Virus record (IMG/VR): IMGVR_UViG_2541047783_000004 | From: a virus | Taxonomy: Duplodnaviria; Heunggongvirae; Uroviricota; Caudoviricetes | Reading direction: 5' to 3' (one strand) | Length of the DNA stretch: 34,123 nt | Shown here: positions 1 through 34,123 of the stretch, piece by piece | Layout of the letters: every line of letters begins with the position of its first letter | Position numbering within the stretch: the stretch's first letter is position 1 | Translations under genes and position numbers: made by a program | The notes under the pieces: generated by a model | Seen by the model: the letters and a program-made list of their open reading frames with translations, nothing else | The model's database searches: none | What the model was told of the DNA's origin: nothing

Positions 1-900
1 TTAACGCAACAATGGGCAATCTGGTGGTAATCGACAACGCAACGCCGCCGGAAGTATTTCAATATGAAAGTTTTGTCCGCTCAACGGTTCGCCATCAAGA
101 TTAAAAGTGATTTCGTGTGGGGCTTGTATATCAAACCACGACGAAGCGCCTTCGATAATATTCGGGTTATCTTCGTCAGATTTTAATGTTGATACGAGAG
201 CCGGAAGAATTTCATCGCCGGTAAAAATGCGCAGTTGCAGCAAGCCATCGTTAATTAACGCGTTCGGGCACAATTGCTGACCGCCACCGGCCTGACGCCC
301 GTTACCAATACCAATGACCAGGGCGTCACCTTGCCAGTGAAAGTTTTCACCGCGGATCTCACAACGGTCCGGTTGCAGAGTATCCATGCGCATTAAGCCA
401 TGAATGATGTAAGAGACGCCACCCAGCGCGGCTTTTAATTTTTCCGGCGTTTCTGTGGTAATACGCGTCCCAAATCCGCCTGTCGCCATATTAATAAAAC
501 AGGTTTGTTTGTTGACCTGCGCCATATCTATCGCAATGGCGTCACCGGCAATTGCCAGTTTCAGCGCCTTATCCAGTGCCTCAGGAATCCTTACACTGGT
601 GGCAAAATCATTGGCGGTTCCTAATGGCAAAATTCCTAGCGCGGGTATGTCATCCCCCTCACACTGAATCAACGCCGTAGAAACTTCATTAATGGTGCCA
701 TCGCCACCACCGGCAATCACCGTTGCGACGCCCAACTTCCGGGCCTCCTCTACATATCGTGCGGCATCGCCTTTCTCCCAGGTGACCCGCACATGGATCG
801 TCATTCCTTCCTCACGCAACAGCATAATTGCTTCGCGCAATGGTAAATTGTCAGTACTTTTGCCATTAAGAATCAGTAAGCTGGCGGGAAATTCTGCCAT
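1..900 (-). CDS. yegS: Lipid kinase YegS (diacylglycerol-kinase-like), 299 aa, complete
   Basis: ORF-track translation begins [18 protein letters not shown] and contains the GGDGT kinase motif; matches E. coli YegS as I recall it; start codon is the complement of 898..900. Confidence 0.9.
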
Positions 901-3445: not shown

Positions 3446-3721
3446 ATGAATAGACAGCTTGTAAGCGTGACTGATGCCGTGCCTTATCAGGAGTTTGCAA
3501 AACTCATTGGTAAAACTCCAAGAGCTGTAAGGGGCATGATTGAGAAAGGGAAATTACCAGTTATTGAGATTACTGACCCTCAGTCAGTATCGGGGCGTGC
3601 TGGTGAATATTGGGTATACCTTCCGGCATGGAATAACGGACTAAAACTGGCTTATGAAAGCCGTCCTAAAGAGATTCGTGACGGCTGGTTGATGTGGTTA
3701 GGTCTCGGTGAACCACGTTAA
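3446..3721 (+). CDS. cox: Cox (excisionase and Pc repressor), 91 aa
   Basis: Translation ...PYQEFAKLIGK...GKLPVIEITDPQSVSGRAGEYWVYLPAWNNGLKLAYESRPKEIRDGWLMWLGLGEPR matches P2 Cox; AAGGGAG Shine-Dalgarno upstream. Confidence 0.88.
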   Translation: MNRQLVSVTDAVPYQEFAKLIGKTPRAVRGMIEKGKLPVIEITDPQSVSGRAGEYWVYLPAWNNGLKLAYESRPKEIRDGWLMWLGLGEPR

Positions 3722-7742: not shown

Positions 7743-7885
7743 TGCTTTGATTTTTTAGTTAGGCTGCTCTAGAATCCACGCCAGTTACCGCTTGGGGTAT
7801 CCTTGCATTGCTCTTGGTATTAGCTTTATACAAAGGGTGTAAAGGCTGCTATTGGCAACAATAGTGCTGGCATGGAGATAATCTC

Positions 7886-7981
7886 ATGTTAAAGTTAGTG
7901 AAAGTACGTCAGTACAATCGCTATCGTTTCGGTAAGTGGGAGACGGTGTGTGAACACCGTCGTTCTTACCCAACCCGATGA
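7886..7981 (+). CDS. Candidate micro-ORF, 31 aa (MLKLVKVRQYNRYRFGKWETVCEHRRSYPTR), convergent with the hotspot gene
   Basis: ATG at 7886 with GGAGA Shine-Dalgarno 7 nt upstream; basic, aromatic-rich peptide; stop lies 9 nt from the stop of the minus-strand 739-aa gene; below the track's size cutoff, so support is weak. Confidence 0.25.
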   Translation: MLKLVKVRQYNRYRFGKWETVCEHRRSYPTR

Positions 7982-7989
7982 TATGCGGC

Positions 7990-10209: not shown

Positions 10210-10538
10210 TTAAAACCTCATCATTGCCAATGATATTGTATAAATATTTAAGCTGTTTAACATGAATTATTTTGCTAAACGATAAAGATCTACCTCAGAA
10301 GTTTACTTTGTTCAAGCAAAATCTTTTGTTCTAAGAGATATAAAAATTTTTATTAATAGTTTGATTTTTGTTCATGGGATTTCCTTTTTTTATGTTTTTA
10401 CAAAGTAATAACTATGCATGTATCAGGTGCATGGTTTTGCATGTGTCAAAGTTATGCGTCCTCATTGCTTTACGTCACAGCTAGCGAGGATTCAACGTAC
10501 TCATGCAACTGCATTAAAACCGCCCCATGAAGCGGGCG

Positions 10539-20956: not shown

Positions 20957-21865
20957 ATGCCGATTATCGACCTGAACCAGCTACCCGCACCGGATGTGGT
21001 CGAGGAGCTGGACTTTGAAACCATTCTTGCCGAACGCAAGGCGACACTGATTTCCCTTTACCCGGAAGACCAGCAGGAGGCGGTCGCCCGTACCCTGACG
21101 CTGGAATCCGAACCTCTCGTCAAACTGCTGGAGGAAAATGCTTATCGTGAGCTTATCTGGCGTCAGCGTGTGAATGAGGCCGCACGGGCGGTAATGCTGG
21201 CCTGTGCCGCCGGTAATGACCTTGATGTGATTGGTGCCAATTACAACACCACGCGCCTGATTATCACCCCGGCAGATGATTCGACCCTCCCGCCGACACC
21301 GGCAGTGATGGAATCTGATACCGATTATCGTCTGCGTATTCAGCAGGCGTTTGAGGGCTTAAGCGTCGCCGGGTCGGTGGGTGCCTATCAGTATCATGGT
21401 CGCAGTGCCGACGGGCGTGTCGCAGATATCTCTGTCACCAGTCCGTCTCCGGCCTGCGTCACCATCTCCGTGCTGTCACGTGAAAATAACGGTGTGGCAT
21501 CCGAAGACCTGCTGGCGGTGGTGCGTAACGCCCTTAATGGCGAGGACGTCAGGCCGGTGGCCGACCGCGTGACCGTGCAGTCTGCCGCCATTGTTGAATA
21601 CCAGATAAACGCCACGCTTTACCTTTACCCTGGTCCCGAAAGCGAACCCATCCGCGCCGCCGCCGTGAAAAAACTGGAAGCGTATATCACGGCACAGCAC
21701 CGGCTGGGGCGTGACATCCGTCTGTCTGCCATTTATGCCGCTTTGCATGTGGAAGGCGTGCAGCGTGTCGAGCTGGCCGCACCACTGGCCGACATTGTGC
21801 TCAACAGTACGCAGGCGTCTTTCTGCACCGAATACAGCGTCGTGACCGGAGGCTCGGATGAGTGA
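20957..21865 (+). CDS. J: Baseplate protein J, 302 aa
   Basis: Translation MPIIDLNQLPAPDVVEELDFETILAERKATLISLYPEDQQ... matches P2 gpJ. Confidence 0.92.
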   Translation: MPIIDLNQLPAPDVVEELDFETILAERKATLISLYPEDQQEAVARTLTLESEPLVKLLEENAYRELIWRQRVNEAARAVMLACAAGNDLDVIGANYNTTRLIITPADDSTLPPTPAVMESDTDYRLRIQQAFEGLSVAGSVGAYQYHGRSADGRVADISVTSPSPACVTISVLSRENNGVASEDLLAVVRNALNGEDVRPVADRVTVQSAAIVEYQINATLYLYPGPESEPIRAAAVKKLEAYITAQHRLGRDIRLSAIYAALHVEGVQRVELAAPLADIVLNSTQASFCTEYSVVTGGSDE

Positions 21866-22469
21866 TTCGCGCCTGCTGCCGACCGGCTCATCACCGCTTG
21901 AAGTCGCCGCCGCAAAAGCCTGTGCGGAAATTGAAAAAACGCCGGTCAGTATTCGTGAGCTGTGGAACCCGGATACCTGTCCGGCAAATCTGCTGCCGTG
22001 GCTGGCGTGGTCATTTTCGGTTGACCGCTGGGATGATAAGTGGCCGGAAGCGACAAAACGCGCTGTTATCCGCGATGCGTATTTCATTCACTGCCATAAG
22101 GGCACTATTGGTGCGATTCGCCGTGTGGTGGAGCCACTCGGCTATCTGATTGAGGTGAGGGAGTGGTGGCAGCTCAACGAGGAGCCGGGGACGTTCCGTA
22201 TCGTTGTCGGCGTGCTTGAGCAGGGTATTACCGAGGAAATGTATCAGGAGCTGGAGCGCCTCGTTGCTGATGCAAAACCGGCAAGCCGCCATCTGACGGG
22301 ACTGGCTATCAGTTTAAGTACAACCGGCAACATTTTTGCCGGTGCGGGATGCTATCACGGTGACGCCCTGACGGTTTATCCCTACACCCCGGAGGCCATT
22401 ATTGTCGGAGGGGATTATTTCCCGGCCTCGGCCATTCATTTAATTGATAACCTGAGAGTAAACGCATGA
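21858..22469 (+). CDS. I: Baseplate protein I, 203 aa (longer than the 176 aa I recall for P2 gpI)
   Basis: Translation [51 protein letters not shown]... matches P2 gpI N-terminally; C-terminus differs and is extended. Confidence 0.88.
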
Positions 22470-23665
22470 CAGTGAAATACTACGCCATTCTGACTAATCA
22501 GGGCGCAGCACGGCTGGCTAACGCGACGATGCTCGGCAGTAAGCTGAATCTGACGCAAATGGCCGTTGGTGATGCGAATGGTGTCTTGCCGACACCAGAC
22601 CCGGCACAGACAAAACTGATTAACCAGAAACGCATCGCGCCGCTGAATCTTCTGAGTGTTGACCCGAACAACCAGAGCCAGATTATTGCGGAGCAAATCA
22701 TCCCTGAGAACGAGGGCGGATTCTGGATCCGTGAGATTGGGCTTTATGATGATGAAGGCGTACTCATTGCGGTGGCGAACTGCCCGGAAACGTACAAACC
22801 GCAGTTGCAGGAAGGCAGCGGTCGTACCCAGACTATCCGCATGATTCTGGTTGTCACGAATACCGAAGCCATCACGCTGAAAATCGACCCGTCGGTGGTA
22901 CTGGCGACCCGTAAATACGTGGATGATGAAGTCCTGGAATTAAAGCTGTATGTGGATGACCAGATGAGAAACCACATTGCCGCACAGGATCCTCATACCC
23001 AGTATGCACAGAAACATAATCCGACATTTACCGGAGAACCAAAAGCGCCGACGCCTGCCGCAGGAAATAACACCACGCGGATTGCGACCACTGCGTTTGT
23101 ACAGGCCGCTATCACCGCTCTGATTAACGGTGCGCCTGCCACGCTGGATACACTGAAAGAAATTGCCGCAGCCATTAACAATGACCCGAAATTCAGCACC
23201 ACCATTAACAATGCGCTGTCAGGTAAGCAGCCACTGGATGAGACGCTGACTCATTTGAGTGGGAAGGATGTTGCCGGTCTTCTCGCATACCTTGGTTTGG
23301 GAGAAGCGGCAAAACGGGGTGTGGGAACAGGGGAAAATCAGATACCGGACATGGCTTCATTTAGTGGGGTGAGGGATTATTACGGAAAACAACTTTTGCC
23401 AGGAGGGTTGATACTTCAGTGGCTGACGATTCCATCAAGTGCAGCAGCTAAAGCTGTAACACTGAATAATGGTAATTATCAGCTGTCAGGCTATAAATGG
23501 CCCCAGTCATTTGGTGTCCTGTTTGCTGTGTTTGCTACAAAAGTTTCTGGCTCGACTAACGAAGCATATGCAATCTCAGTTAATCGTCACTCTACCGATG
23601 TAATTGTCACTTGGAATGCCCGTAAGGCTGATGATGTCCACATTTTAGGAATTGGGAAATTATGA
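22466..23665 (+). CDS. H: Tail fibre protein H, 399 aa; constant N-terminal part fused to the currently expressed variable C-terminal cassette
   Basis: N-terminal 250 aa or so resemble P2 gpH ([22 protein letters not shown]...EGSGR); the gene is crossed by the left inversion site at 23280..23305; ATGA overlap with I. Confidence 0.85.
23280..23305. repeat. Left crossover site of the invertible tail-fibre segment (gix/hix-like, 26 bp) inside H
   Basis: TTCTCGCATACC-TT-GGTTTGGGAGAA is an inverted copy of the right site at 25153..25178 (15-bp perfect core TTGGTTTGGGAGAAG / CTTCTCCCAAACCAA); half-sites resemble the Gin/Hin consensus TTATCnAAACC. Confidence 0.7.
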
Positions 23666-24081
23666 AAATGAAATGGTCCCCATCTGTTCAGGGATTTTTC
23701 TCTGAAAATAACAGCGATATTCCCGATGATGCTTTCGATATTGAAGATGCTCTTTATTATGAACTTATGAATGGTCAGAGTACGGGGAAAATTATTATCA
23801 ATAACCCGGATAACTACCCTGTACTTACTGAATATCCAGCGAAGACACAGGAACAGGAAATAGCTGAAGCGGAGGGAATGAAAAGTATACTTATTGAACA
23901 GGCCAACGAATACATGAACAGTAAGCAATGGCCTGGTAAAGCCGCTATTGGTCGTCTGAAAGGTGAGGAACTGGCGCAATATAATTTGTGGCTGGATTAT
24001 CTGGACGCACTGGAACTGGTTGATACCTCCAGTGCGCCAGATATTGAATGGCCTACGCCTCCGGCAGTTCAGGCCAGATGA
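23662..24081 (+). CDS. Tail fibre assembly chaperone (gpG/Tfa-like), 139 aa, in the expressed orientation
   Basis: Immediately follows H with an ATGA overlap; C-terminal ...[23 protein letters not shown] is echoed in the inverted paralogue ([25 protein letters not shown]). Confidence 0.8.
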
Positions 24082-24655
24082 CATCCGGCGCGGTGCTGGT
24101 ATCTGTTGCCGTCACCGAGTCAATGTAATCCAGCACAGCGTTAAGTCGGGTGTTTTCTGTCTGCGTCAGCTTCCGCCCGGCCTGTAATTTCAGTTGAATC
24201 AGACTGATGGAAGCCATTGCAGCATCAATCAGCGACTGGCGCTGTGCTTCTGCCGCTTCTACTGCGGCGCTATGCTGTGCCTCAGTATTGGTCACCCATT
24301 TCTCACCATCCCATTTATCGTATGGCGTTAACGGTGCGAGAGTGGTTGTATTTTCGGGATAGTCGCCTGGTGCTGTGATTTCTTTGGCATCTCCCGTTTC
24401 GGTGTTGTAGACAATTTCACCGCGATGGTCTGGCACATATTCCCATGAGTTAAAATCTGCAGAACGGCAGATTGCATAACCAGCTTTATGTGTAACTGGT
24501 GCATCTAAACAAGAACATGCCGGGATACCGACGCCAACCGCAAGATATTCAGTTGATGAGGAAATATATTCCCGCGTTTCACCATCATAATTATAAATGG
24601 TAATGTCTCCCGCTTTTATGGCAATGAGTTCGTTATTTAATACGGCTTTATTCAT
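24053..24655 (-). CDS. Alternative tail fibre assembly chaperone (Tfa'), 200 aa, inverted orientation
   Basis: Convergent with and overlapping the 3' end of the plus-strand tfa; shares its C-terminal motif; follows the Sv' cassette on the minus strand with a TGATG overlap. Confidence 0.75.
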   Translation of the reverse strand: MNKAVLNNELIAIKAGDITIYNYDGETREYISSSTEYLAVGVGIPACSCLDAPVTHKAGYAICRSADFNSWEYVPDHRGEIVYNTETGDAKEITAPGDYPENTTTLAPLTPYDKWDGEKWVTNTEAQHSAAVEAAEAQRQSLIDAAMASISLIQLKLQAGRKLTQTENTRLNAVLDYIDSVTATDTSTAPDVIWPELPEA

Positions 24656-25165
24656 CAGGCAGCCCTCACGATATAATTAAAGGCAATGTTACGAGGACGG
24701 TTTTCGTTTGCAGTTGGAACAATTCTTGAAGCATCAAGGCCAATCACTTTTGGGTAAACAGCGCCATCTGTTCTTTCTGTCACCATACTTCTGATTAAGG
24801 AGAAATAACTATTGTTCGTTGAGGGGTTCAAAGGCACCACTGCCCCCTTAAACGAGCCTACTGATTCCCATATTGAATAATTTTCGGTGTTTACAGTCTT
24901 GAACTCACCATAGATATTACGTATGGCATCGCCCTGAGCTGATAATATTGCCCTCCCCGTATCCATACCACGTCCGTCATCCCAGCCACGAATAAACTCA
25001 CCACGTAAATCAGGCAATTTATTTGTCGGGTAAGCCTTTGCCAGTTCCGGGTATTCTTCAGCAGAAAAAGCTGCTCCGTTGCATTTTAGCCAGCCTGTTG
25101 GCGGAGTGGCTGAGGGCCACGGAACAGGCACACCAACGGGTAATGCCGAACCTTCTCCCAAACCA
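24655..25165 (-). CDS. Silent alternative tail-fibre C-terminal cassette (Sv'), about 170 codons, with no start of its own in this orientation
   Basis: The minus-strand frame reads ...FLNVGLGEGSALPVGVPVPWP..., continuing in frame through the right crossover site, where GLGE matches the LAYLGLGE junction in H; inversion would fuse it to the H constant region. Confidence 0.65.
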
Positions 25166-25178
25166 ACGTTTAAGAAAA
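25153..25178. repeat. Right crossover site of the invertible segment (gix/hix-like, 26 bp)
   Basis: TTCTCCCAAACC-AA-CGTTTAAGAAAA; inverted repeat of 23280..23305; lies just upstream of the invertase gene. Confidence 0.7.
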
Positions 25179-25233
25179 TGCAGAGATTATGGCTAACTGG
25201 CATCATCTCCGGTTTTTATTCAGGGGGATGCTC

Positions 25234-25827
25234 ATGCTTATTGGCTATGTACGCGTGTCAACAAATGACCAGAACACGGAATTGCAGCGTAATGCGCTGG
25301 AGTGCGCAGGATGTGAGCTGATTTTTGAGGACAAAATCAGCGGCACGAAGTCCGACAGGCCGGGGCTGAAAAAACTGCTCAGAACATTATCGGAAGGTGA
25401 CACTCTGGTTGTCTGGAAGCTGGACAGGCTGGGGCGTAGTATGCGGCATCTGGTCATTCTGGTTGAGGAACTGCGCGAACGCGGCGTTAATTTTCGCAGC
25501 CTGACGGATGCTATTGATACCAGCACGCCGATGGGGCGTTTTTTCTTTCATGTGATGGGTGCCCTGGCTGAAATGGAGCGAGAACTCATTGTCGAGCGGA
25601 CACGCGCCGGACTGGAAGCGGCCAGAGCCAAAGGTCGTATTGGTGGCAGACGACCGAAACTCACCGCGAGTGAGTGGGAGCAGGCCGGGCGTTTGCTGGC
25701 TGCAGGGGAGTCACGTCAACGCGTGGCACTGATTTTTGATATTGGTCTGTCCACGCTCTATAAAAAATTTCCCTCATCAGCGACAAAGAATAAATTGTGT
25801 CATCCCTTAGCCAACCGGGACAAATAG
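25234..25827 (+). CDS. Site-specific DNA invertase, serine recombinase of the Gin/Hin/Cin/Pin family, 197 aa
   Basis: Internal ATG at 25234 with AGGGGG Shine-Dalgarno; translation MLIGYVRVSTNDQNTELQRNAL...LVVWKLDRLGRSMRHL...GRIGGRRPKL...LSTLYKK has the catalytic Ser in YVRVSTNDQ and a C-terminal helix-turn-helix. Confidence 0.92.
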   Translation: MLIGYVRVSTNDQNTELQRNALECAGCELIFEDKISGTKSDRPGLKKLLRTLSEGDTLVVWKLDRLGRSMRHLVILVEELRERGVNFRSLTDAIDTSTPMGRFFFHVMGALAEMERELIVERTRAGLEAARAKGRIGGRRPKLTASEWEQAGRLLAAGESRQRVALIFDIGLSTLYKKFPSSATKNKLCHPLANRDK

Positions 25828-25886
25828 CCTGACATCTCCGGCACAACTGAAAATATCACTCACCCATTAACCACGGAGTTAAACGG

Positions 25887-27077
25887 ATGAGTGACTATCA
25901 TCACGGCGTGCAGGTGCTGGAGATTAACGACGGCACCCGCGTCATTTCCACCGTATCCACTGCCATTGTCGGCATGGTCTGCACGGCCAGCGATGCGGAT
26001 GCGGAAACCTTCCCCCTCAATAAACCTGTGCTGATTACCAATGTGCAGAGCGCAATTGCAAAGGCCGGTAAAAAAGGCACGCTGGCGGCATCGTTGCAGG
26101 CCATCGCTGACCAGTCAAAACCGGTCACCGTTGTCGTGCGCGTGGAAGACGGCACCGGTGATGACGAGGAAACGAAACTCGCGCAGACCGTTTCCAATAT
26201 CATCGGCACCACTGACGAAAACGGTCAGTACACCGGACTGAAAGCCCTGCTGGCGGCGGAGTCGGTAACCGGTGTTAAGCCGCGTATTCTCGGTGTGCCG
26301 GGGCTGGATACCAAAGAGGTTGCCGTCGCACTGGCATCAGTCTGTCAGAAGCTGCGCGCTTTCGGATATATCAGCGCATGGGGCTGTAAAACCATTTCCG
26401 AGGTGAAAGCCTACCGCCAGAATTTCAGCCAGCGTGAGCTGATGGTCATCTGGCCGGATTTCCTCGCATGGGATACGGTTGCCAGTACCACCACCACCGC
26501 GTATGCCACCGCCCGTGCGCTGGGTCTGCGTGCCAGAATTGACCAGGAGCAGGGCTGGCATAAAACGCTGTCCAATGTCGGGGTGAACGGTGTTACCGGC
26601 ATCAGCGCCTCTGTATTCTGGGATTTGCAGGAGTCCGGCACCGATGCTGACCTGCTTAACGAGTCAGGCGTCACTACGCTGATTCGCCGTGACGGTTTCC
26701 GATTCTGGGGTAACCGTACCTGCTCGGATGACCCGCTGTTCCTCTTTGAAAACTACACCCGCACCGCGCAGGTGCTGGCCGACACGATGGCTGAAGCGCA
26801 CATGTGGGCGGTGGACAAGCCTATCACCGCAACGCTGATTCGCGACATCGTTGACGGCATTAATGCCAAATTCCGTGAGCTGAAAACAAACGGCTATATC
26901 GTGGATGCGACCTGCTGGTTCAGCGAAGAATCCAACGATGCGGAAACCCTCAAGGCCGGAAAACTGTATATCGACTACGACTATACACCGGTGCCTCCTC
27001 TTGAAAACCTGACCCTGCGCCAGCGTATTACCGATAAATACCTGGCAAATCTGGTCACCTCGGTTAACAGCAATTAA
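25887..27077 (+). CDS. FI: Tail sheath protein FI, 396 aa
   Basis: Translation MSDYHHGVQVLEINDGTRVISTVSTAIVGMVCTASDADAETFPLNKPVLI... matches P2 gpFI; GGAG Shine-Dalgarno upstream. Confidence 0.93.
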   Translation: MSDYHHGVQVLEINDGTRVISTVSTAIVGMVCTASDADAETFPLNKPVLITNVQSAIAKAGKKGTLAASLQAIADQSKPVTVVVRVEDGTGDDEETKLAQTVSNIIGTTDENGQYTGLKALLAAESVTGVKPRILGVPGLDTKEVAVALASVCQKLRAFGYISAWGCKTISEVKAYRQNFSQRELMVIWPDFLAWDTVASTTTTAYATARALGLRARIDQEQGWHKTLSNVGVNGVTGISASVFWDLQESGTDADLLNESGVTTLIRRDGFRFWGNRTCSDDPLFLFENYTRTAQVLADTMAEAHMWAVDKPITATLIRDIVDGINAKFRELKTNGYIVDATCWFSEESNDAETLKAGKLYIDYDYTPVPPLENLTLRQRITDKYLANLVTSVNSN

Positions 27078-27089
27078 GGAGCCTGACCG

Positions 27090-27608
27090 ATGGCAATGCC
27101 GCGCAAACTCAAGTTAATGAACGTCTTTCTGAACGGCTACAGCTATCAGGGCGTCGCGAAGTCCGTCACGCTACCAAAACTGACCCGTAAGCTCGAAAAC
27201 TATCGCGGTGCGGGGATGAACGGCAGCGCACCGGTAGACCTCGGCCTTGATGACGATGCGCTGTCAATGGAGTGGTCGCTCGGTGGCTTCCCGGATTCGG
27301 TTATCTGGGAGCTTTACGCCGCAACCGGTGTGGATGCCGTCCCGATTCGTTTTGCAGGCTCTTACCAGCGCGACGATACCGGCGAAACGGTGGCCGTCGA
27401 GGTGGTCATGCGTGGACGTCAGAAAGAAATCGACACCGGCGAGGGCAAACAGGGAGAAGACACCGAGTCGAAAATCTCCGTGGTCTGCACCTATTTCCGG
27501 CTGACGATGGACGGTAAGGAGCTGGTCGAAATCGACACCATCAACATGATTGAGAAGGTGAACGGCGTCGACCGGCTGGAGCAACACCGCCGCAATATCG
27601 GCCTGTGA
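27090..27608 (+). CDS. FII: Tail tube protein FII, 172 aa
   Basis: Translation MAMPRKLKLMNVFLNGYSYQGVAKSVTLPKLTRKLENYRGAGMNG... matches P2 gpFII; AAGGAG Shine-Dalgarno upstream. Confidence 0.93.
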   Translation: MAMPRKLKLMNVFLNGYSYQGVAKSVTLPKLTRKLENYRGAGMNGSAPVDLGLDDDALSMEWSLGGFPDSVIWELYAATGVDAVPIRFAGSYQRDDTGETVAVEVVMRGRQKEIDTGEGKQGEDTESKISVVCTYFRLTMDGKELVEIDTINMIEKVNGVDRLEQHRRNIGL

Positions 27609-27664
27609 TTTTCATCCGGTCAGCCTGGCTGACCGGTTAACCCCGATTCAGAAGTGAGAAAACC

Positions 27665-27940
27665 ATGAACAAAGAAAATGTGATTACCCTGGACAATCCG
27701 GTCAAGCGTGGTGAGCAGGTTATCGAACAGGTCACGCTGATGAAACCTAATGCCGGGACGCTGCGCGGTGTCAGTCTGGCTGCGGTCGCAAACTCCGAAG
27801 TCGATGCACTGATTAAGGTGCTGCCGCGCATGACGGCACCGATGCTGACCGAGCAGGAGGTCGCCGCGCTGGAACTGCCTGACCTTGTGGCGCTGGCCGG
27901 TAAGGTGGTCGGTTTTTTGTCTCCGAACTCGGTGCAGTGA
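27665..27940 (+). CDS. E: Tail assembly chaperone E, 91 aa
   Basis: Translation MNKENVITLDNPVKRGEQVIEQVTLMKPNAGTLRGVSLAAVANSEVDALIKVLPRMTAPMLTEQEVAALELPDLVALAGKVVGFLSPNSVQ matches P2 gpE. Confidence 0.9.
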   Translation: MNKENVITLDNPVKRGEQVIEQVTLMKPNAGTLRGVSLAAVANSEVDALIKVLPRMTAPMLTEQEVAALELPDLVALAGKVVGFLSPNSVQ

Positions 27941-28092
27941 CGTTTCCGAAAAATCTGTCGGTCGATGACCTGATGGCAGATGTGGCAGTGATATTTCACT
28001 GGCCGCCATCAGAACTGTATCCCATGAGCCTGACCGAACTCATCACATGGCGCGAAAAGGCGCTCCGGCGAAGCGGAAACACGAATGAGTAA
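27665..28092 (+). CDS. E': E+E' programmed -1 frameshift product (tail assembly chaperone long form)
   Basis: Slippery heptamer T_TTT_TTG at 27913..27919 near the end of E; the -1 frame continues open (...VSELGAVTFPKNLSVDDLMADVAVIFHWPPSELYPMSLTELITWREKALRRSGNTNE) to TAA at 28090..28092, overlapping the T start. Confidence 0.75.
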
Positions 28093-30532
28093 CAATGTAA
28101 AATTACAGGTATTGCTCAGGGCTGTTGACCAGGCATCCCACCCGTTTAAATCCATCCGCACAGCGAGCAAATCGCTGTCGGGGGATATCCGGGAAACACA
28201 AAAATCACTGCGCGAGCTGAACGGTCAGGCATCCCGTATTGAGGGATTTCGCAAGACCAGTGCACAGCTCGCCGTGACTGGTCATGCACTTGAAAAGGCA
28301 CGGCAGGAGGCCGAAGCCCTTGCCACACAGTTTAAAAACACCGAACGTCCGACACGTGCTCAGGCGAAGGTGCTGGAATCCGCGAAGCGTGCGGCAGAGG
28401 ACTTACAGGCGAAATATAACCGCCTGACGGATTCCGTTAAACGCCAGCAGCGGGAACTGGCCGTTGTGGGAATTAATACCCGCAATCTTGCACATGATGA
28501 GCAGGGACTGAAAAACCGTATCAGTGAAACCACCGCCCAGCTTAACCGGCAGCGTGACGCGCTGGCGCGTGTCAGTGCACAACAGGCAAAACTTAACGCA
28601 GTCAAACAGCGTTATCAGGCCGGAAAGGAACTGGCCGGAAATATGGTCTCAGTTGGCGCTGCCGGTGTGGGGATTGCGGCGGCGGGAACGATGGCCGGTG
28701 TTAAGCTGTTGATGCCCGGTTATGAGTTTGCGCAGAAAAACTCAGAATTGCAGGCCGTGCTAGGTGTGGCAAAAGACTCCGCCGAAATGGCCGCGCTCCG
28801 CAAGCAGGCGCGCCAGCTCGGCGATAATACCGCCGCCTCGGCGGATGATGCAGCCGGTGCGCAGATTATCATTGCGAAAGCCGGCGGGAATGTTGATGCC
28901 ATTCAGGCGGCAACGCCGGTCACGCTGAATATGGCGCTGGCGAACCGTCGCACGATGGAAGAAAACGCCGCCCTGTTGATGGGGATGAAATCCGCCTTTC
29001 AGCTTTCAAACGATAAGGTCGCTCATATCGGGGATGTTCTCTCCATGACGATGAACAAAACCGCCGCCGATTTTGACGGCATGAGCGATGCGCTGACCTA
29101 TGCCGCACCTGTGGCAAAAAATGCCGGTGTCAGCATTGAAGAAACCGCCGCAATGGTCGGGGCGCTGCATGATGCAAAAATTACCGGTTCAATGGCGGGG
29201 ACGGGAAGCCGTGCCGTGTTAAGCCGCCTGCAGGCACCGACGGGAAAAGCATGGGATGCACTGAAAGAGCTTGGTGTGAAAACCTCAGACAGCAAGGGAA
29301 ACACCCGACCAATATTTACCATTCTGAAAGAAATGCAGGCCAGTTTTGAGAAAAACCGGCTCGGTACTGCCCAGCAGGCTGAATACATGAAAACCATTTT
29401 CGGGGAGGAGGCCAGCTCAGCCGCCGCCGTGCTGATGACTGCCGCCTCAACCGGAAAGCTGGACAAACTGACCGCTGCGTTTAAAGCCTCAGACGGGAAG
29501 ACCGCCGAGCTGGTAAATATCATGCAGGACAACCTCGGCGGTGACTTTAAGGAGTTTCAGTCCGCTTATGAGGCGGTGGGGACAGACCTGTTTGACCAGC
29601 AGGAAGGCGCACTGCGTAAACTCACTCAGACGGCCACAAAGTATGTGTTAAAACTCGACGGCTGGATCCAGAAAAACAAATCACTGGCGTCAACCATCGG
29701 CCTCATTGTCGGTGGCGCGCTGGCGCTTATTGGCATCATCGGTGCCATTGGTCTTGTAGCATGGCCGGTTATCACCGGCATCAATGCCATTATCGCGGCA
29801 GCAGGCGCAATGGGGGCAATCTTCATGACGGTTGGCAGTGCTGTTATGACGGCCATCGGGGCGATTAGCTGGCCGGTTGTGGCCGTGGTGGCCGCCATTG
29901 TCGCCGGGGCGTTGCTTATCCGTAAATACTGGGAGCCTGTCAGCGCATTCTTTGGCGGTGTGGTGGAAGGGCTGAAAGCGGCATTTGCGCCGGTGGGGGA
30001 GCTGTTCACGCCACTGAAACCGGTGTTTGACTGGCTGGGCGAAAAGTTACAGGCCGCGTGGCAGTGGTTTAAAAACCTGATTGCCCCGGTCAAAGCCACA
30101 CAGGACACCCTGAACCGTTGCCGTGACACGGGCGTCATGTTCGGGCAGGCACTGGCTGACGCGCTGATGCTGCCGCTTAATGCGTTCAACAAACTGCGCA
30201 GCGGTATTGACTGGGTACTGGAAAAGCTCGGGGTCATCAACAAAGAGTCAGACACACTTGACCAGACCGCCGCCAGAACTCATGCCGCCACGTATGGCAC
30301 CGGTGGTTATATTCCGGCGACCAGCTCTTATGCAGGCTATCAGGCTTATCAGCCGGTCACGGCACCGGCTGGCCGCTCTTATGTGGACCAGAGTAAAAAC
30401 GAATATCACATCAGCCTGACGAGTGGTACTGCGCCGGGGACACAGCTTGACCGCCAGTTACAGGATGCGCTCGAAAAATACGAGCGGGATAAACGTGCGC
30501 GCGCCCGTGCCAGCATGATGCATGACGGTTAA
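28085..30532 (+). CDS. T: Tail tape measure protein T, 815 aa
   Basis: Translation MSNNVKLQVLLRAVDQASHPFKSIRTASKSLSGDIRETQKSLREL...; long helical protein with a hydrophobic Gly/Ala-rich central region; matches P2 gpT in size and position. Confidence 0.93.
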   Translation: MSNNVKLQVLLRAVDQASHPFKSIRTASKSLSGDIRETQKSLRELNGQASRIEGFRKTSAQLAVTGHALEKARQEAEALATQFKNTERPTRAQAKVLESAKRAAEDLQAKYNRLTDSVKRQQRELAVVGINTRNLAHDEQGLKNRISETTAQLNRQRDALARVSAQQAKLNAVKQRYQAGKELAGNMVSVGAAGVGIAAAGTMAGVKLLMPGYEFAQKNSELQAVLGVAKDSAEMAALRKQARQLGDNTAASADDAAGAQIIIAKAGGNVDAIQAATPVTLNMALANRRTMEENAALLMGMKSAFQLSNDKVAHIGDVLSMTMNKTAADFDGMSDALTYAAPVAKNAGVSIEETAAMVGALHDAKITGSMAGTGSRAVLSRLQAPTGKAWDALKELGVKTSDSKGNTRPIFTILKEMQASFEKNRLGTAQQAEYMKTIFGEEASSAAAVLMTAASTGKLDKLTAAFKASDGKTAELVNIMQDNLGGDFKEFQSAYEAVGTDLFDQQEGALRKLTQTATKYVLKLDGWIQKNKSLASTIGLIVGGALALIGIIGAIGLVAWPVITGINAIIAAAGAMGAIFMTVGSAVMTAIGAISWPVVAVVAAIVAGALLIRKYWEPVSAFFGGVVEGLKAAFAPVGELFTPLKPVFDWLGEKLQAAWQWFKNLIAPVKATQDTLNRCRDTGVMFGQALADALMLPLNAFNKLRSGIDWVLEKLGVINKESDTLDQTAARTHAATYGTGGYIPATSSYAGYQAYQPVTAPAGRSYVDQSKNEYHISLTSGTAPGTQLDRQLQDALEKYERDKRARARASMMHDG

Positions 30533-30546
30533 GGAGGTGACGAAAA

Positions 30547-31026
30547 ATGATGCTCGCGTTAGGTATGTTTGTTTTTATGCGCCAGACGCTGCCACACCAG
30601 ACCATGCAGCGTGAATCAGATTATCGCTGGCCGTCAAATTCCCGTGTCGGCAAACGGGATGCCTTTCAGTTTCTCGGTGTGGGTGAGGAAAACATTACGC
30701 TTGCCGGTGTGCTTTATCCCGAACTGACCGGCGGAAAGCTGACGATGACCACGCTCAGACTGATGGCAGAGGAAGGCCGGGCGTGGCCGTTGCTGGATGG
30801 CACCGGAATGATTTACGGCATGTATGTCATCAGCAGGGTGAGTGAAACAGGGTGTATTTTCTTTGCAGACGGCACACCCCGAAAAATTGATTTTACGCTG
30901 TCGCTCACCCGCGTTGATGAATCACTGGCCGCGCTTTATGGCGATATCGGTAAACAGGCGGAATCGCTCATCGGTAAGGCCGGCAGTATGGCGACCAGAT
31001 TCACGGGTATGACGGGGGCGGGATAA
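30547..31026 (+). CDS. U: Tail protein U, 159 aa
   Basis: Translation MMLALGMFVFMRQTLPHQTMQRESDYRWPSNSRVGKRDAFQFLGVGEENITLAG... matches P2 gpU. Confidence 0.92.
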   Translation: MMLALGMFVFMRQTLPHQTMQRESDYRWPSNSRVGKRDAFQFLGVGEENITLAGVLYPELTGGKLTMTTLRLMAEEGRAWPLLDGTGMIYGMYVISRVSETGCIFFADGTPRKIDFTLSLTRVDESLAALYGDIGKQAESLIGKAGSMATRFTGMTGAG

Positions 31027-32189
31027 TGCTGGATGCGCTGACATTTGATGCAGGCAGTACGCTGACACCGGATTACATGCTGATGCTCGACAGCAGGGAT
31101 ATTACCGGCAATATCAGCGACCGTCTGATGAGCATGACCCTGACGGATAACCGGGGCTTTGAGGCTGACCAGCTTGATATTGAACTGAACGATGCCGACG
31201 GGCAGGTCGGACTGCCGGTTCGTGGCGCTGTCCTGACGGTGTATATCGGCTGGAAAGGTTTTGCCCTGGTATGCAAAGGGAAATTCACCGTTGATGAGGT
31301 TGAACACCGGGGCGCGCCGGATGTGGTCACCATCCGCGCCCGGAGTGCAGATTTCCGCGGGACGCTCAATTCCCGCCGTGAAGGTTCCTGGCATGACACC
31401 ACGCTCGGTGCGATTGTTGAGGCGATAGCCTCCCGTAACAGGCTGGAAGCCAGTGTCGCTCCGTCACTGGCCGGAATTAAAATCCCGCACATCGACCAGT
31501 CGCAGGAGTCTGATGCGAAATTCCTGACCCGTCTTGCAGAACGCAACGGCGGTGAGGTGTCGGTAAAAATGGGAAAACTGTTGTTTCTCAAAGCGGGGCA
31601 GGGGGTGACGGCCAGCGGTAAAAAAATCCCGCAGGTCACCATCACCCGCAGCGACGGCGACCGTCATCATTTTGCGATTGCTGACCGTGGAGCCTATACC
31701 GGCGTTACGGCAAAGTGGTTACACACCAAAGACCCGAAGCCACAAAAGCAGAAGGTAAAACTGAAACGCAAAAAGAAAGAAAAACACCTGCGCGCACTGG
31801 AGCACCCGAAAGCAAAACCGGTCACGCAGAAGAAAGCGCCAAAAGTACCGGAAGCGCGCGAAGGTGAATACATGGCCGGTGAGGCTGACAACGTTTTTGC
31901 ACTGACCACGGTATATGCCACGAAAGCACAGGCCATGCGCGCCGCTCAGGCGAAGTGGGATAAACTGCAACGGGGTGTAGCGGAGTTCTCCATCAGTCTG
32001 GCTACTGGTCGGGCAGATATTTACACGGAAACGCCGGTCAAAGTGTCAGGCTTTAAGCGCGTCATAGACGAGCAGGACTGGACAATCACTAAGGTGACAC
32101 ATTTTCTGAATAATAGCGGCTTCACGACGTCCTTGGAGCTTGAGGTCAGGCTTTCTGATGTGGAGTACGAAACCGAAGATGATGAGTGA
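31026..32189 (+). CDS. D: Tail protein D (late control gene D), 387 aa
   Basis: Translation MLDALTFDAGSTLTPDYMLMLDSRDITGNISDRLMSMTLTDNRGFEADQLDIELNDADG... matches P2 gpD; TAATG overlap with U. Confidence 0.92.
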   Translation: MLDALTFDAGSTLTPDYMLMLDSRDITGNISDRLMSMTLTDNRGFEADQLDIELNDADGQVGLPVRGAVLTVYIGWKGFALVCKGKFTVDEVEHRGAPDVVTIRARSADFRGTLNSRREGSWHDTTLGAIVEAIASRNRLEASVAPSLAGIKIPHIDQSQESDAKFLTRLAERNGGEVSVKMGKLLFLKAGQGVTASGKKIPQVTITRSDGDRHHFAIADRGAYTGVTAKWLHTKDPKPQKQKVKLKRKKKEKHLRALEHPKAKPVTQKKAPKVPEAREGEYMAGEADNVFALTTVYATKAQAMRAAQAKWDKLQRGVAEFSISLATGRADIYTETPVKVSGFKRVIDEQDWTITKVTHFLNNSGFTTSLELEVRLSDVEYETEDDE

Positions 32190-32270
32190 TGTTTTTGTTT
32201 TATCTGTTTGTTTTATAAGAATAAATTAACTAAAATGGCACCATCAACAAAACCGGAAGAGGTGCTCGCG

Positions 32271-32489
32271 ATGTTTCATTGTCCTTTATGCCAGCATGCC
32301 GCACATGCGCGTACAAGTCGCTATATCACTGACACGACAAAAGAGCGTTATCACCAGTGCCAGAACGTGAATTGCAGCGCCACGTTCATCACTTATGAGT
32401 CGGTACAGCGATACATCGTGAAGCCGGGAGAAGTCCACGCCGTAAGGCCGCACCCGTTGCCGTCAGGGCAGCAAATTATGTGGATGTAA
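32271..32489 (+). CDS. ogr: Ogr, zinc-finger activator of late transcription, 72 aa
   Basis: Internal ATG at 32271; translation MFHCPLCQHAAHARTSRYITDTTKERYHQCQNVNCSATFITYESVQRYIVKPGEVHAVRPHPLPSGQQIMWM matches P2 Ogr, with four Cys in CPLC...CQNVNC. Confidence 0.93.
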   Translation: MFHCPLCQHAAHARTSRYITDTTKERYHQCQNVNCSATFITYESVQRYIVKPGEVHAVRPHPLPSGQQIMWM

Positions 32490-32501
32490 TTACAAACAGA
32501 A

Positions 32502-32527
32502 AGCCCCTCAGTCGAGGGGCTTTTTTG
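32502..32527 (+). terminator. Rho-independent terminator after ogr
   Basis: GCCCCTC-AGTC-GAGGGGC hairpin followed by TTTTTT. Confidence 0.75.
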
Positions 32528-32590
32528 TCGATGTGGTCAATGTGTGGACGTGACCAGAAATAAATCCTTTTATTTCATTGTATTACGCGT

Positions 32591-32617
32591 AAAAAATAAG
32601 CCCGTGTAAGGGAGATT
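32591..32617. repeat. attR core, 27-bp direct repeat; doubles as the 3' terminator segment of cyaR
   Basis: Identical to 1790..1816; the minus-strand reading gives AATCTCCCTTACACGGGCTTATTTTTT, a hairpin plus U-tract. Confidence 0.85.
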
Positions 32618-32677
32618 ACACAGGCTAAGGAGGTGGTTCCTGGTACAGCTAGCATTTTATGGGTTATGTTTTTCAGC
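32591..32677 (-). ncRNA. cyaR: CyaR (RyeE) Hfq-dependent small RNA, about 87 nt
   Basis: Minus-strand sequence GCTGAAAAACATAACCCATAAAATGCTAGCTGTACCAGGAACCACCTCCTTAGCCTGTGTAATCTCCCTTACACGGGCTTATTTTTT matches E. coli CyaR as I recall it, including the anti-Shine-Dalgarno seed CACCUCCUUA and terminator hairpin; sits next to yegQ as in E. coli K-12. Confidence 0.8.
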
Positions 32678-32761
32678 GAAACGGATGATAACCTTAATAA
32701 ATGCAGCTGTATGTGATCGGTTTCTAAGAATTTTCCATCCGGGAAAAATAATCGAAATTAA

Positions 32762-34123
32762 TCACTTACCGTGGGGGTTACGCGTGGTTTCCCCGGAGAA
32801 ATTACGCATCAGGAGCGCGTAATTTAGCTCAAGATCCTGCGGGACCGGGAGCCACACAGTATAACCATCGCCTGGTGCGACCGGCATAGCTTCACCTTTG
32901 GCGTTTTCCATGTGCTCAAGGGTAAAGTTAATGTTGCCTTGCGGCGTCATCAGCTCAAGGCTGTCACCAACGGAGAATTTATTTTTCACCGCTACCGCCG
33001 CGAGGTCGCCCTTGCGCTCACCGGTAAACTCACCAACAAACTGCTGGCGGTCAGAAACTGAATAACCGTATTCGTAGTTCTGATAATCGTCGTGAGTATG
33101 ACGACGCAGGAAACCTTCGGTATAGCCACGATGCGCCAGACCTTCCAGAGTTTCCAGCAGGCTGGTATCGAATGGTTTTCCCGCAGCTGCGTCATCGATA
33201 GCTTTACGGTAAACCTGCGCGGTGCGTGCGCAATAGTAGAAAGATTTGGTACGGCCTTCGATTTTCAGCGAATGCACTCCCATTTTGGTCAGGCGTTCTA
33301 CATGGGCGATGGCGCGCAGATCTTTCGAGTTCATGATGTAAGTGCCGTGCTCATCTTCAAACGCGGTCATATACTCGCCCGGACGCTGGGCCTCTTCGAT
33401 CATAAACACTTTGTCGGTTGGTGCGCCGATACCCAGCGTCGGCTCAACATTTTGCACCGGAATCGGCTCGTACTTGTGTACGATGTTGCCAACGTCATCT
33501 TCTTTCCCTTCCTGGACGTTGTATTCCCAGCGGCAGGCGTTGGTGCAGGTGCCCTGGTTCGGGTCGCGCTTGTTGATATAGCCAGAGAGCAGGCAGCGAC
33601 CGGAGTAGGCCATGCACAGCGCGCCGTGAACGAAGATCTCTACCTCCATATCCGGCACCTGATTGCGGATCTCTTCAATCTCTTCCAGCGACAGCTCGCG
33701 AGAGAGGATCACGCGGGTCAGGCCCATTTGCTGCCAGAATTTCACCGTCGCCCAGTTCACGGCGTTAGCCTGTACCGAGAGATGGATCGGCATTTCAGGG
33801 AAGTGCTCACGCACCAGCATAATCAGCCCTGGATCGGACATAATCAGCGCATCCGGCCCCATTTCCACCACCGGTTTCAGGTCACGGATAAAGGTTTTCA
33901 GCTTGGCGTTGTGCGGTGCAATGTTGACCACGACATAAAACTTTTTCCCCAGCGCGTGGGCTTCATTGATGCCGAGCTGGAGATTTTCGTGGTTAAATTC
34001 GTTGTTGCGCACACGCAGGGAGTAACGCGGCTGGCCCGCATAAACAGCATCTGCGCCATAAGCGAAAGCGTAACGCATATTTTTCAGCGTTCCCGCCGGG
34101 GAAAGGAGTTCCGGTTTAAACAT
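32762..34123 (-). CDS. yegQ: Peptidase U32-family protein YegQ (TrhP, tRNA hydroxylation), 453 aa, complete
   Basis: Translation MFKPELLSPAGTLKNMRYAFAYGADAVYAGQPRYSLRVRNNEFNHENL... matches E. coli YegQ; start codon is the complement of 34121..34123. Confidence 0.9.
   Translation of the reverse strand: MFKPELLSPAGTLKNMRYAFAYGADAVYAGQPRYSLRVRNNEFNHENLQLGINEAHALGKKFYVVVNIAPHNAKLKTFIRDLKPVVEMGPDALIMSDPGLIMLVREHFPEMPIHLSVQANAVNWATVKFWQQMGLTRVILSRELSLEEIEEIRNQVPDMEVEIFVHGALCMAYSGRCLLSGYINKRDPNQGTCTNACRWEYNVQEGKEDDVGNIVHKYEPIPVQNVEPTLGIGAPTDKVFMIEEAQRPGEYMTAFEDEHGTYIMNSKDLRAIAHVERLTKMGVHSLKIEGRTKSFYYCARTAQVYRKAIDDAAAGKPFDTSLLETLEGLAHRGYTEGFLRRHTHDDYQNYEYGYSVSDRQQFVGEFTGERKGDLAAVAVKNKFSVGDSLELMTPQGNINFTLEHMENAKGEAMPVAPGDGYTVWLPVPQDLELNYALLMRNFSGETTRNPHGK

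Follow-up and report, generated by a model that had tools for sequence, protein, structure and literature searches.

The 34,123-nt stretch of DNA analysed here (the window; IMG/VR record IMGVR_UViG_2541047783_000004) represents an apparently intact P2-like (Peduoviridae) prophage of Escherichia coli. Its tail-fibre region very probably constitutes a functional two-state switch of the Gin/Pin type, in which site-specific inversion of a DNA segment exchanges the tip of the fibre. The features of this module are the following:

22466-23665, plus strand: tail-fibre gene H, 399 aa, with a Phage_tail_fib N-terminal domain
22466-23291, plus strand: constant part of H (Sc), 275 codons, outside the invertible segment (PF12571 Phage_tail_fib, E 2e-62)
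23280-23305: left crossover site, 26 bp, inside H, central TT at 23292-23293, TTCTCGCATACC-TT-GGTTTGGGAGAA
23292-25166: invertible segment, 1875 bp between the crossover dinucleotides
23292-23665, plus strand: Sv, the variable fibre tip now expressed, 124 codons, in frame with H
23662-24081, plus strand: chaperone 1, for Sv, 139 aa (Caudo_TAP, E 5.7e-24; phrog_188)
24053-24655, minus strand: chaperone 2, for the silent tip, 200 aa, TfaE-like (Caudo_TAP, E 6e-32)
24655-25166, minus strand: Sv', the silent alternative fibre tip (Collar domain, E 8e-16)
25153-25178: right crossover site, 26 bp, central AA at 25165-25166, TTCTCCCAAACC-AA-CGTTTAAGAAAA
25234-25827, plus strand: serine DNA invertase of the Gin/Pin/Cin type, 197 aa (Resolvase and HTH_7 domains)
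25252-25323: putative recombinational enhancer, inside the 5' end of the invertase gene
25790-25818, plus strand: counterpart of the binding site of the P2 pF activator (Ogr), in the last 12 invertase codons

Genomic context

Except at the old/tin hotspot, the prophage is 94-98% identical in nucleotide sequence to P2 (NC_001895) over 1789-22294 and 25807-32617, and its gene order is collinear with that of P2 from int to ogr, in agreement with the PGAP annotation of the identical prophage of E. coli Q65. Between these regions a foreign block (22294-25807) replaces P2 12629-17572, comprising the end of I, H, G and fun(Z), and P2 homology resumes at 25807. A first-pass annotation of this DNA had placed the module at the position of P2 Z/fun, between H and FI. 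Z/fun is indeed covered, but the replacement also takes in the end of I, H and G, and the description as a simple insertion between H and FI has to be abandoned in favour of an imported block. The same annotation considered the segment to be absent from classic P2, as the comparison with NC_001895 also indicated. The H N-terminus shares 42% amino acid identity with that of P2 H.

Two convergent cassettes with exchangeable fibre tips

The segment consists of two convergent cassettes, each formed by a fibre tip and a Caudo_TAP chaperone, an arrangement that had been proposed from the sequence and agrees with the ORFs and Pfam domains. Sv shows a weak match to Gp53-like_C (E 0.0019, under the Pfam cut-off), phrog_2557 spans H residues 186-399 and PGAP names the relatives of Sv 'gp53-like domain-containing protein'. 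No sequence similarity was detected between Sv and Sv' (E 0.59), suggesting that an orientation-specific host range is likely, and the similarity between chaperones 1 and 2 is confined to the C-terminal 68 aa. NCBIfam assigned neither the fibre nor the chaperone proteins to a family, and its matches for the invertase stayed below threshold. As called mechanically, the ORF of the silent tip extends over 24655-25206 (minus strand), with its ATG at 25206 falling outside the segment.

Both fibre frames read the central TT as the second and third positions of a codon, and across the crossover the silent cassette reads ...IFLNVGLGEGSA. Inversion of 23292-25166 in silico produced an in-frame fibre of 445 aa, the stop codon of which overlaps the start of chaperone 2 (TGATG), with the 200-aa chaperone directly next. 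Residues 1-280 are common to the 399-aa and 445-aa products. The in-frame fusion claimed earlier for both states is thus preserved, and since each alternative tip has its own Caudo_TAP gene directly after it, tip and chaperone would switch together.

Crossover sites

The left and right sites rank first among the inverted repeats of the region (27 nt, 81% complementary) and share a perfect 15-bp core (TTGGTTTGGGAGAAG), in which 23292-23306 is the reverse complement of 25152-25166. When the whole 34-kb window was searched with the invertase-site consensus TTCTCNNAAACCNNGGTTTNNGAGAA, allowing up to 3 mismatches, exactly two matches were obtained, corresponding to the left and right sites, compared with 0.00 expected by chance (100 shuffles). 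These repeat and consensus searches substantiate the initial description of two 26-bp inverted sites sharing a 15-bp perfect core. Alignment with gix, cix and the e14 sites identified both as gix/cix/pix-type sites in inverted orientation with matching central dinucleotides. No additional or degenerate crossover sites were found in the window with the consensus at up to 3 or at 6 mismatches; raising the tolerance to 6 substitutions added one match, at 3702, which is implausible, and the system was considered on this basis to have two sites and two states. A multi-state system such as Min of p15B or the four-state prophage of enteropathogenic E. coli (EPEC) is not indicated, as these searches gave no further sites.

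The invertase and its putative enhancer

The invertase reading frame is intact and encodes Resolvase (PF00239, E 2e-52) and HTH_7 (PF02796, E 1e-12) domains, with MLIGYVRVSTND containing the catalytic Ser9. The protein matched the Gin structure 3UJ3 with E 1.6e-94 and gamma-delta resolvase only with E 6e-33, and is 98.0% identical to the pro483 invertase, 85.3% to PinE, 78.5% to Cin and 78.0% to Gin. These domains and identities confirm the serine invertase that had been noticed beside the segment, and the suggested alignment of enzyme and sites with their gin, cin and pin relatives gave close matches. Met114 is wild-type, whereas in the Gin crystal construct 3UJ3 this position was changed to V. 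The motif EQAGRLL is that of Gin, without any difference, and helix B (GLKKLLRTL) has basic residues as in Gin (GLKRALKRL) and Cin (GLKKVLRML); we take these residues to be the counterparts of those that carry Hin numbering. In Hin, roles in Fis activation have been described for Q151, R154 and L155 and for basic helix-B residues (PMC3798978). From its sequence, the enzyme appears to be a member of the Fis/enhancer-dependent Gin/Cin/Pin/Hin subfamily of small serine recombinases. The distance from the centre of the right site to the invertase ATG is 68.5 bp, a value common to pro483, Cartapus and MET_P1_103_31; for Mu and e14 it is 67.5 bp.

A Fis-dependent enhancer had been suggested as a feature to look for in the 5' part of the invertase gene, and a putative one is present at sequence level. 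Two Fis-type 15-mers, 25256-25270 (TGTCAACAAATGACC) and 25304-25318 (GCGCAGGATGTGAGC), conform to (G/T)NNYRNNWNNYRNNC; measured from centre to centre they are 48 bp apart, and the proximal one is centred about 97.5 bp from the right-site centre, a spacing that matches the enhancer geometry of Hin (PMC3798978). The stretch 25252-25323 corresponds to nt 19-90 of P1 cin, annotated as enhancer in the P1 record, the distal 15-mer is the same as that of P1 cin and the register of the 15-mers agrees with the annotated P1 cin enhancer as well as with Mu and e14. Nucleotide conservation was dropped as independent support, the values for this stretch (0.74-0.86) being not clearly higher than those for the remaining invertase gene (0.71-0.87). 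Because the candidate enhancer overlaps coding sequence and its conservation does not exceed that of the rest, the motif match is inseparable from protein constraint. A scan of 23200-25950 for sigma-70 promoters and terminators detected 4 promoter-like sites vs 4.1 in shuffles, and none could be placed for the invertase.

Both orientations occur in nature

The module flipped in silico was found with 100.0% identity and 100% coverage (3435 nt) in 3 records, belonging to E. coli Q65 and to CB7453, the latter being one assembly under two accessions, and at 99.9% in two further records. The Q65 prophage (CP180222), which occupies the same chromosomal site (yegS/yegQ locus), is equal to the flipped window at 31,656 of 31,658 nt. 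The segment aligns to the minus strand of Q65 and both flanks to the plus strand, and inverting exactly 23292-25166 reproduces the Q65 sequence. Since the two prophages are separated by the inversion plus 2 SNPs in 31.7 kb, the flip is younger than almost any point mutation. Among complete genomes of close relatives, counting modules that cover at least 80% of the 3.4-kb query, 15 had the orientation of the window and 23 were flipped. A count made with 301-bp junction queries (18 vs 436 genomes) was set aside as confounded, because the start of the collar-type Sv' is common to many different modules, and the whole-module counts were used for this reason.

Based on this natural polymorphism across genomes, as opposed to observation within one culture, inversion between the two sites appears to occur; in principle, the difference in orientation between genomes could reflect rare events. 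Loss of the reading frame on inversion, or a single orientation throughout, had been named beforehand as outcomes that would speak against the switch; the frame is kept and both states exist among the genomes.

A model for the switch

In the proposed mechanism, the invertase would bind both 26-bp sites and, assisted by host Fis bound at the enhancer within the 5' part of the invertase gene, would make its cuts at the central TT/AA dinucleotides, inverting 23292-25166 by strand rotation. In the orientation of the window, the late V-operon transcript would encode H(1-275) joined to Sv (399 aa), along with the 139-aa chaperone; once flipped, it would encode H(1-275) joined to the collar-domain tip Sv' (445 aa) and the 200-aa TfaE-like chaperone. 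As fibre and chaperone would both depend on orientation, the virions released by a lysogen population would be of two kinds, differing in the receptor-binding tip. We infer both the dependence on Fis and the timing of switching, and the two tips probably recognise different receptors.

Alternative interpretations

An unlikely reading, although the one that best survives, considers the ORF starting outside the right site (ATG at 25206/25203) as the source of a free fibre-tip fragment in the lysogen, which would shield surface receptors from other phages in a phase-variable manner, in addition to or instead of the switch in phage host range, and would functionally replace the Z/fun exclusion gene. 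The fragment would be a collar-type tip of 183 aa now and a gp53-like tip of 137 aa once inverted. This idea draws on an in-frame Met-(Met)-Pro start that lies 13-14 codons outside the crossover in the window, Cartapus, e14 and Mu (Met-Met-Pro in the first three and Met-Pro in Mu), on the report that the e14 equivalent, StfE2, blocks adsorption of T2 (PMC12529663) and on the fact that the P2 Z/fun hotspot usually houses exclusion or defence genes. However, no promoter was found for the ORF, which abuts the invertase start, a match of only 9/12 lying 180 nt upstream, inside the invertase gene; GGAG is placed 0-3 nt from the ATGs, a poor spacing; and the shared TGGCATCAT could serve the expression of the invertase itself. 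Moreover, the fragment is only 57% identical to StfE, and the claim for e14 comes from one study (PMC12529663). That the start at 25206 is a mere annotation artefact was considered as well and kept as an alternative, against which stand the conservation of the in-frame ATG and the StfE2 report (PMC12529663).

It is very unlikely that the switch is a fossil, once invertible and now effectively locked, with both orientations representing old, rarely interconverting lineages. Some relatives have clearly decayed, for instance phage P2-T22, which has a hybrid right site and a truncated invertase of 164 aa; nevertheless, the near-identity of window and Q65 apart from the inversion, the integrity of the invertase and of both sites, and the frequency of both states among near-identical modules all argue for a switch that still operates.

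Gin, Cin, Pin and Hin cross-complement. This, the agreement of the 15-bp core with the opening 15 nt of the core of the e14 P segment and the reported ability of several Pin enzymes to flip one segment (PMC12529663) would favour a real inversion produced mainly in trans by PinE, PinQ and PinR of host cryptic prophages, or by RecA acting on the short repeats, and not by the adjacent gene. Against this reading, which is the least probable of all, the cis invertase is intact and has the canonical site-to-ATG geometry, and efficient recombination by RecA requires perfect repeats longer than 15 bp.

Significance

The module, read as an inversion switch of the fibre tip, is an already known kind of host-range switch, and annotations of this architecture already exist for deposited genomes of Peduoviridae, among them pro483 and Cartapus. 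Its value is that of a clear and apparently active case of a mechanism known from textbooks, with the same module present in many of the E. coli genomes searched. It explains the 1.9-kb inversion that separates otherwise identical assemblies, as well as the orphan 'tail protein' or 'hypothetical protein' of 183 aa or 136 aa, depending on the state, in PGAP annotations. Phage obtained from this lysogen probably comprises two adsorption types, and the match of the crossover core to the e14 P segment over 15 nt makes cross-talk with host Pin invertases likely. The sole reading of wider interest, if true, would be phase-variable receptor masking at the Z/fun hotspot.

Comparison with known systems

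The first-pass annotation had compared the module with the machinery of Mu G, P1 C and e14; the type was correctly recognised, but the closest classical relative is the P segment/PinE of e14 from E. coli K-12, not Mu or P1. All five genes have the same order and orientation there (stfP/tfaP - tfaE/stfE - pinE), the two systems have the 15-bp core in common, with one difference in 26 positions at the right site and three at the left, and their site-to-invertase geometry agrees to 1 bp. The e14 proteins show 85% (PinE), 88.5% (TfaE, chaperone 2), 50% (TfaP, chaperone 1) and 57% (StfE, Sv') identity to those encoded here, whereas Sv (gp53-like) is without a counterpart in StfP. In addition, e14 is a defective lambdoid element, while the module described here resides in an apparently complete P2-type myovirus and is joined to an H N-terminus of P2 type. 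For the homologous P segment of e14, inversion has been documented (PMC12529663).

Mu G/Gin and P1 C/Cin follow the same logic, with a constant Sc, alternative Sv/U and Sv'/U' and 26-bp inverted sites, have the enhancer in the 5' end of the invertase gene, as putatively here, and encode invertases about 78% identical to this one. In contrast, the segment here (1.9 kb) is shorter than those of Mu (3.0 kb) and P1 (4.2 kb), the tips show no relationship at sequence level (blastp gave no hits to Mu S or S'), and the P1 invertase lies on the opposite side and reads towards the segment, unlike the arrangement in this prophage. The Hin/H segment of Salmonella shares, by description, the enzyme family, the 26-bp site type and the Fis/enhancer geometry of about 100 bp (PMC3798978), but Hin flips a promoter controlling flagellin genes and not alternative coding cassettes.

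Identical architecture is found in pro483, Cartapus, MET_P1_103_31 and the P2-like prophages of EPEC E2348/69, with the invertase at the Z/fun hotspot and the order I - H - tfa - (tfa' - Sv') - DNA invertase - FI common to the P2-like carriers. Fels-2/Fin of Salmonella is counted among these carriers as well, by citation only. The left site is identical to those of pro483, Cartapus, P2-T22 and MET_P1_103_31, and this prophage and the P2-like carriers have in common the C-terminal invertase tail KNKLCHPLxNRDK, which extends into the pF upstream region. Only the pairing of tips differs among them, pro483 aligning, at 94% identity, to 78% of the 3.4-kb query. Among the EPEC prophages, one has three sites and four states, compared with the two sites present here. 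Invertases have been reported at the P2 Z/fun hotspot (bioRxiv 10.1101/2024.10.15.618418), and segment inversion in the P2-like prophages of EPEC E2348/69 was shown by whole-genome sequencing (WGS) and PCR (PMC4272514).

Structure of the Invertible Segment

A first-pass annotation, made from the sequence alone, proposed that this P2-like prophage carries a Gin/Hin-type invertible tail-fiber segment bounded by two inverted 26-bp sites with a perfect 15-bp core. Inverted-repeat and consensus searches bore out both sites, and ORF calls and domain searches agreed with the genes and protein families that had been named.

Features of the module
Left crossover site, 23280-23305, 26 bp: TTCTCGCATACC-TT-GGTTTGGGAGAA
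Right crossover site, 25153-25178, 26 bp: TTCTCCCAAACC-AA-CGTTTAAGAAAA
H, tail fiber, 399 aa: Phage_tail_fib N-terminal domain
First chaperone, 139 aa: Caudo_TAP
Second chaperone, 200 aa, strand opposite to H: Caudo_TAP
Silent fiber tip (Sv'), strand opposite to H: Collar domain
Invertase, start 25234, 197 aa, beginning MLIGYVRVSTNDQ: Resolvase and HTH_7
Fis-type 15-mer, proximal, 25256-25270: TGTCAACAAATGACC
Fis-type 15-mer, distal, 25304-25318: GCGCAGGATGTGAGC

The longest inverted repeat in 21000-27000 pairs 23280-23306 with 25152-25178 (27 nt, 81% complementary). Both sites are imperfect palindromes with the central dinucleotide in the middle, and they share the perfect core TTGGTTTGGGAGAAG (23292-23306 and 25152-25166). 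In the whole 34-kb window the invertase-site consensus with up to three mismatches matched these two sites only, with no match in 100 dinucleotide-preserving shuffles; allowing up to six substitutions across the window added a single, implausible match at 3702.

The central TT occupies codon positions 2-3 in both fiber frames, and in silico inversion of 23292-25166 kept the frame, as predicted, producing a 445-aa fiber in which H residues 1-275 are followed by ...LGLGEGSALPVGVPVPWPSATPPTGW... and which ends in a stop overlapping the 200-aa chaperone's start codon (TGATG). Sequence comparison of the expressed (Sv) and silent tips detected no likeness (E 0.59), and the similarity between the two chaperones is confined to their C-terminal 68 residues. 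The convergent chaperone genes share 29 nt at their 3' ends (24053-24081). Their conserved C-terminal motifs (LDYLD.../...APD(I/V).WP) also give rise to a short inverted repeat that pairs 23991-24006 and 24119-24134.

Two ATGs on the minus strand of 25179-25233, at 25206 and 25203, provide an in-frame Met-Met-Pro start 13-14 codons beyond the right site, so that the "silent" cassette is a complete ORF (183 aa at present, 137 aa once inverted; PGAP annotates both forms). The Met-(Met)-Pro start is also present in the cryptic prophage e14, phage Cartapus and Mu, and the plus-strand motif TGGCATCAT is kept in e14 and Cartapus (TGGCATGAT in Mu). This ORF is the equivalent of e14 stfE/stfE2 (PMC12529663), and it has been claimed that e14 StfE2 blocks T2 adsorption (Kirigo et al., 2025; PMC12529663). 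Synthesis of a StfE2-like product from the ORF is unlikely here, and a receptor mask serving the lysogen is given low weight.

Both Orientations in Escherichia coli Genomes

Orientation was counted by running 22466-25900, native or flipped, as a megablast query over a set of 5,426 complete E. coli genomes. Both orientations were found, the native one in 15 genomes (best identity 99.5%) and the flipped one in 23, each with at least 80% query coverage. E. coli Q65 (CP180222) and CB7453, the latter standing under two accessions (CM144245 and OZ392432), each matched the entire flipped query at 100.0% identity, and two further records matched it at 99.9%. Aligned to the Q65 locus, the window matches the plus strand at 2466-23306 and 25152-34123 (99.99%) and the minus strand at 23292-25169; Q65 differs from the in silico-flipped window at 2 of 31,658 positions (8755 and 28647), both far away from the module. 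The Q65 prophage occupies the same chromosomal site, adjoining yegQ. The same prophage is thus known from sequenced genomes in either state, and the breakpoints fall exactly within the predicted core. This is strong evidence for a recent, site-specific inversion, judged across separate genomes rather than as a rate within a culture. The reading of the module as a locked fossil carries low weight.

In the E. coli MS 198-1 assembly, related modules in opposite orientations were observed on NZ_CP146687.1 (chromosome) and NZ_CP146689.1 (66,790 bp). The two matches are equal in score and identity; either the strain has a second copy of the prophage, or mixed orientation in the culture caused the assembly to split.

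Invertase and Enhancer

Domains and identities support the proposed serine invertase gene directly after the segment and make its product Gin/Pin-type. The closest solved structure is Mu Gin (3UJ3, E 1.6e-94), resolvase structures matching far less well (~E 1e-33). Global protein identity is 98.0% to the phage pro483 "DNA invertase", 85.3% to e14 PinE, 78.5% to Cin and 78.0% to Gin. Ser9 is kept, and position 114 carries Met, the wild-type Gin residue (V in the crystallized construct 3UJ3). In its EQAGRLL stretch and basic helix-B residues the protein agrees with Gin and Cin; the equivalent residues in Hin are specific to Fis/enhancer activation (McLean et al.; PMC3798978).

The Fis-dependent enhancer expected in the 5' part of the invertase gene is present at the sequence level. 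The P1 record places the Cin enhancer at cin nt 19-90, colinear with 25252-25323, where the two Fis-type 15-mers lie with centers 48 bp apart, Y-R steps at ±3-4 in both, and the same register in gin, cin and pinE; the distal one is identical to that of cin. The proximal center is 97.5 bp from that of the right site; the Hin enhancer comprises 65 bp with a Fis site at either end, ~100 bp from hixL (PMC3798978). The site center lies 68.5 bp from the invertase ATG in the window, pro483, Cartapus and Salmonella phage MET_P1_103_31; in Mu and e14 the distance is 67.5 bp. Since the stretch encodes protein and is not clearly better conserved at the nucleotide level than the remaining gene, we infer its enhancer function.

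Prophage Context

The window holds a P2-like prophage bounded by yegS (1-900, minus strand) and yegQ, a site also occupied in E. coli Q65 and SC418. Most of it is collinear with P2 (NC_001895; 94-98% identity), and the prophage ends (~1789 and ~32617) coincide with the limits of homology to the attP core of P2. Two blocks are not P2-like, 7735-10510 and 22294-25807. The former lies in the old/tin hotspot; within the block, the minus strand of 7990-10209 encodes a 739-aa AAA_13 ATPase matching the PADLOC candidate defense family PDC-S06 (E 4e-253), its C-terminal part being PrrC-like.

The second block stands in place of P2 12629-17572 (end of I, H, G, fun(Z)). The proposed location at Z/fun holds in that this hotspot is occupied, but the exchange that brought in the module also took in H and its chaperone, and at its N-terminus H shares only 42% identity with P2 H. 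Because P2 homology restarts within the final invertase codons (25807), the counterpart of the pF activator-binding (Ogr) site (25790-25818; P2 17555-17583) lies inside the last 12 codons of the invertase ORF, which terminates (25827) in sequence homologous to the upstream region of the P2 pF promoter. The invertase C-terminal tail KNKLCHPLANRDK is common to pro483 and MET_P1_103_31, evidencing an old and conserved mosaic junction and pointing to a single ancestral acquisition in this lineage.

Mechanism of Inversion

Module anatomy, frame logic and both natural states are direct observations, and the standard Gin/Cin/Pin mechanism is the best-supported account. Invertase dimers at the two sites and Fis at the enhancer would form an invertasome; cuts at the central dinucleotides, subunit rotation and religation would invert the segment, and the late V operon would then yield one of the two tips with its own chaperone. 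Inversion is likely Fis dependent, switching presumably takes place during lysogeny, as it does in Mu, and the tips may differ in receptor. Inversion by trans-acting host Pin enzymes or RecA is given low weight. The core agrees with the e14 P-segment core given in PMC12529663 over the first 15 nt of the latter; PinE, PinQ and PinR, invertases of cryptic prophages, could probably invert the segment studied here, and the window invertase could flip that of e14.

Comparison with Known Systems

Among classical systems, the e14 P segment comes closest to this one within the invertible part (TfaE 88.5%, TfaP 50% and StfE 57% identical to their counterparts), and its right site differs at 1 of 26 positions. 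Deposited Peduoviridae genomes are annotated with this gene order (I - H - tfa - (tfa' - Sv') - DNA invertase - FI), namely those of pro483, Cartapus, MET_P1_103_31 and the P2-like phage from E. coli O157:H43 T22. In the T22 phage (KC618326; 3198-3789) the right site is a hybrid, TTCTCCCAAACCAAGGTATGCGAGAA, with the outer half of a normal right site left over behind it, and the invertase is shortened to 495 nt (164 aa). This is probably a derivative of the same module that has been rearranged or locked.

In EPEC E2348/69, sequencing and PCR demonstrated that invertible loci in two P2-like prophages, one two-state and one four-state, are phase variable (Goldberg et al., 2014; PMC4272514), and a DNA invertase, together with inversion of its neighboring genes, is often seen at the Z/fun hotspot (2024 preprint, 10.1101/2024.10.15.618418). 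Based on these deposited genomes, the EPEC inversion and the hotspot preprint, the finding is correct, yet already known in kind and in the P2-like phage group.
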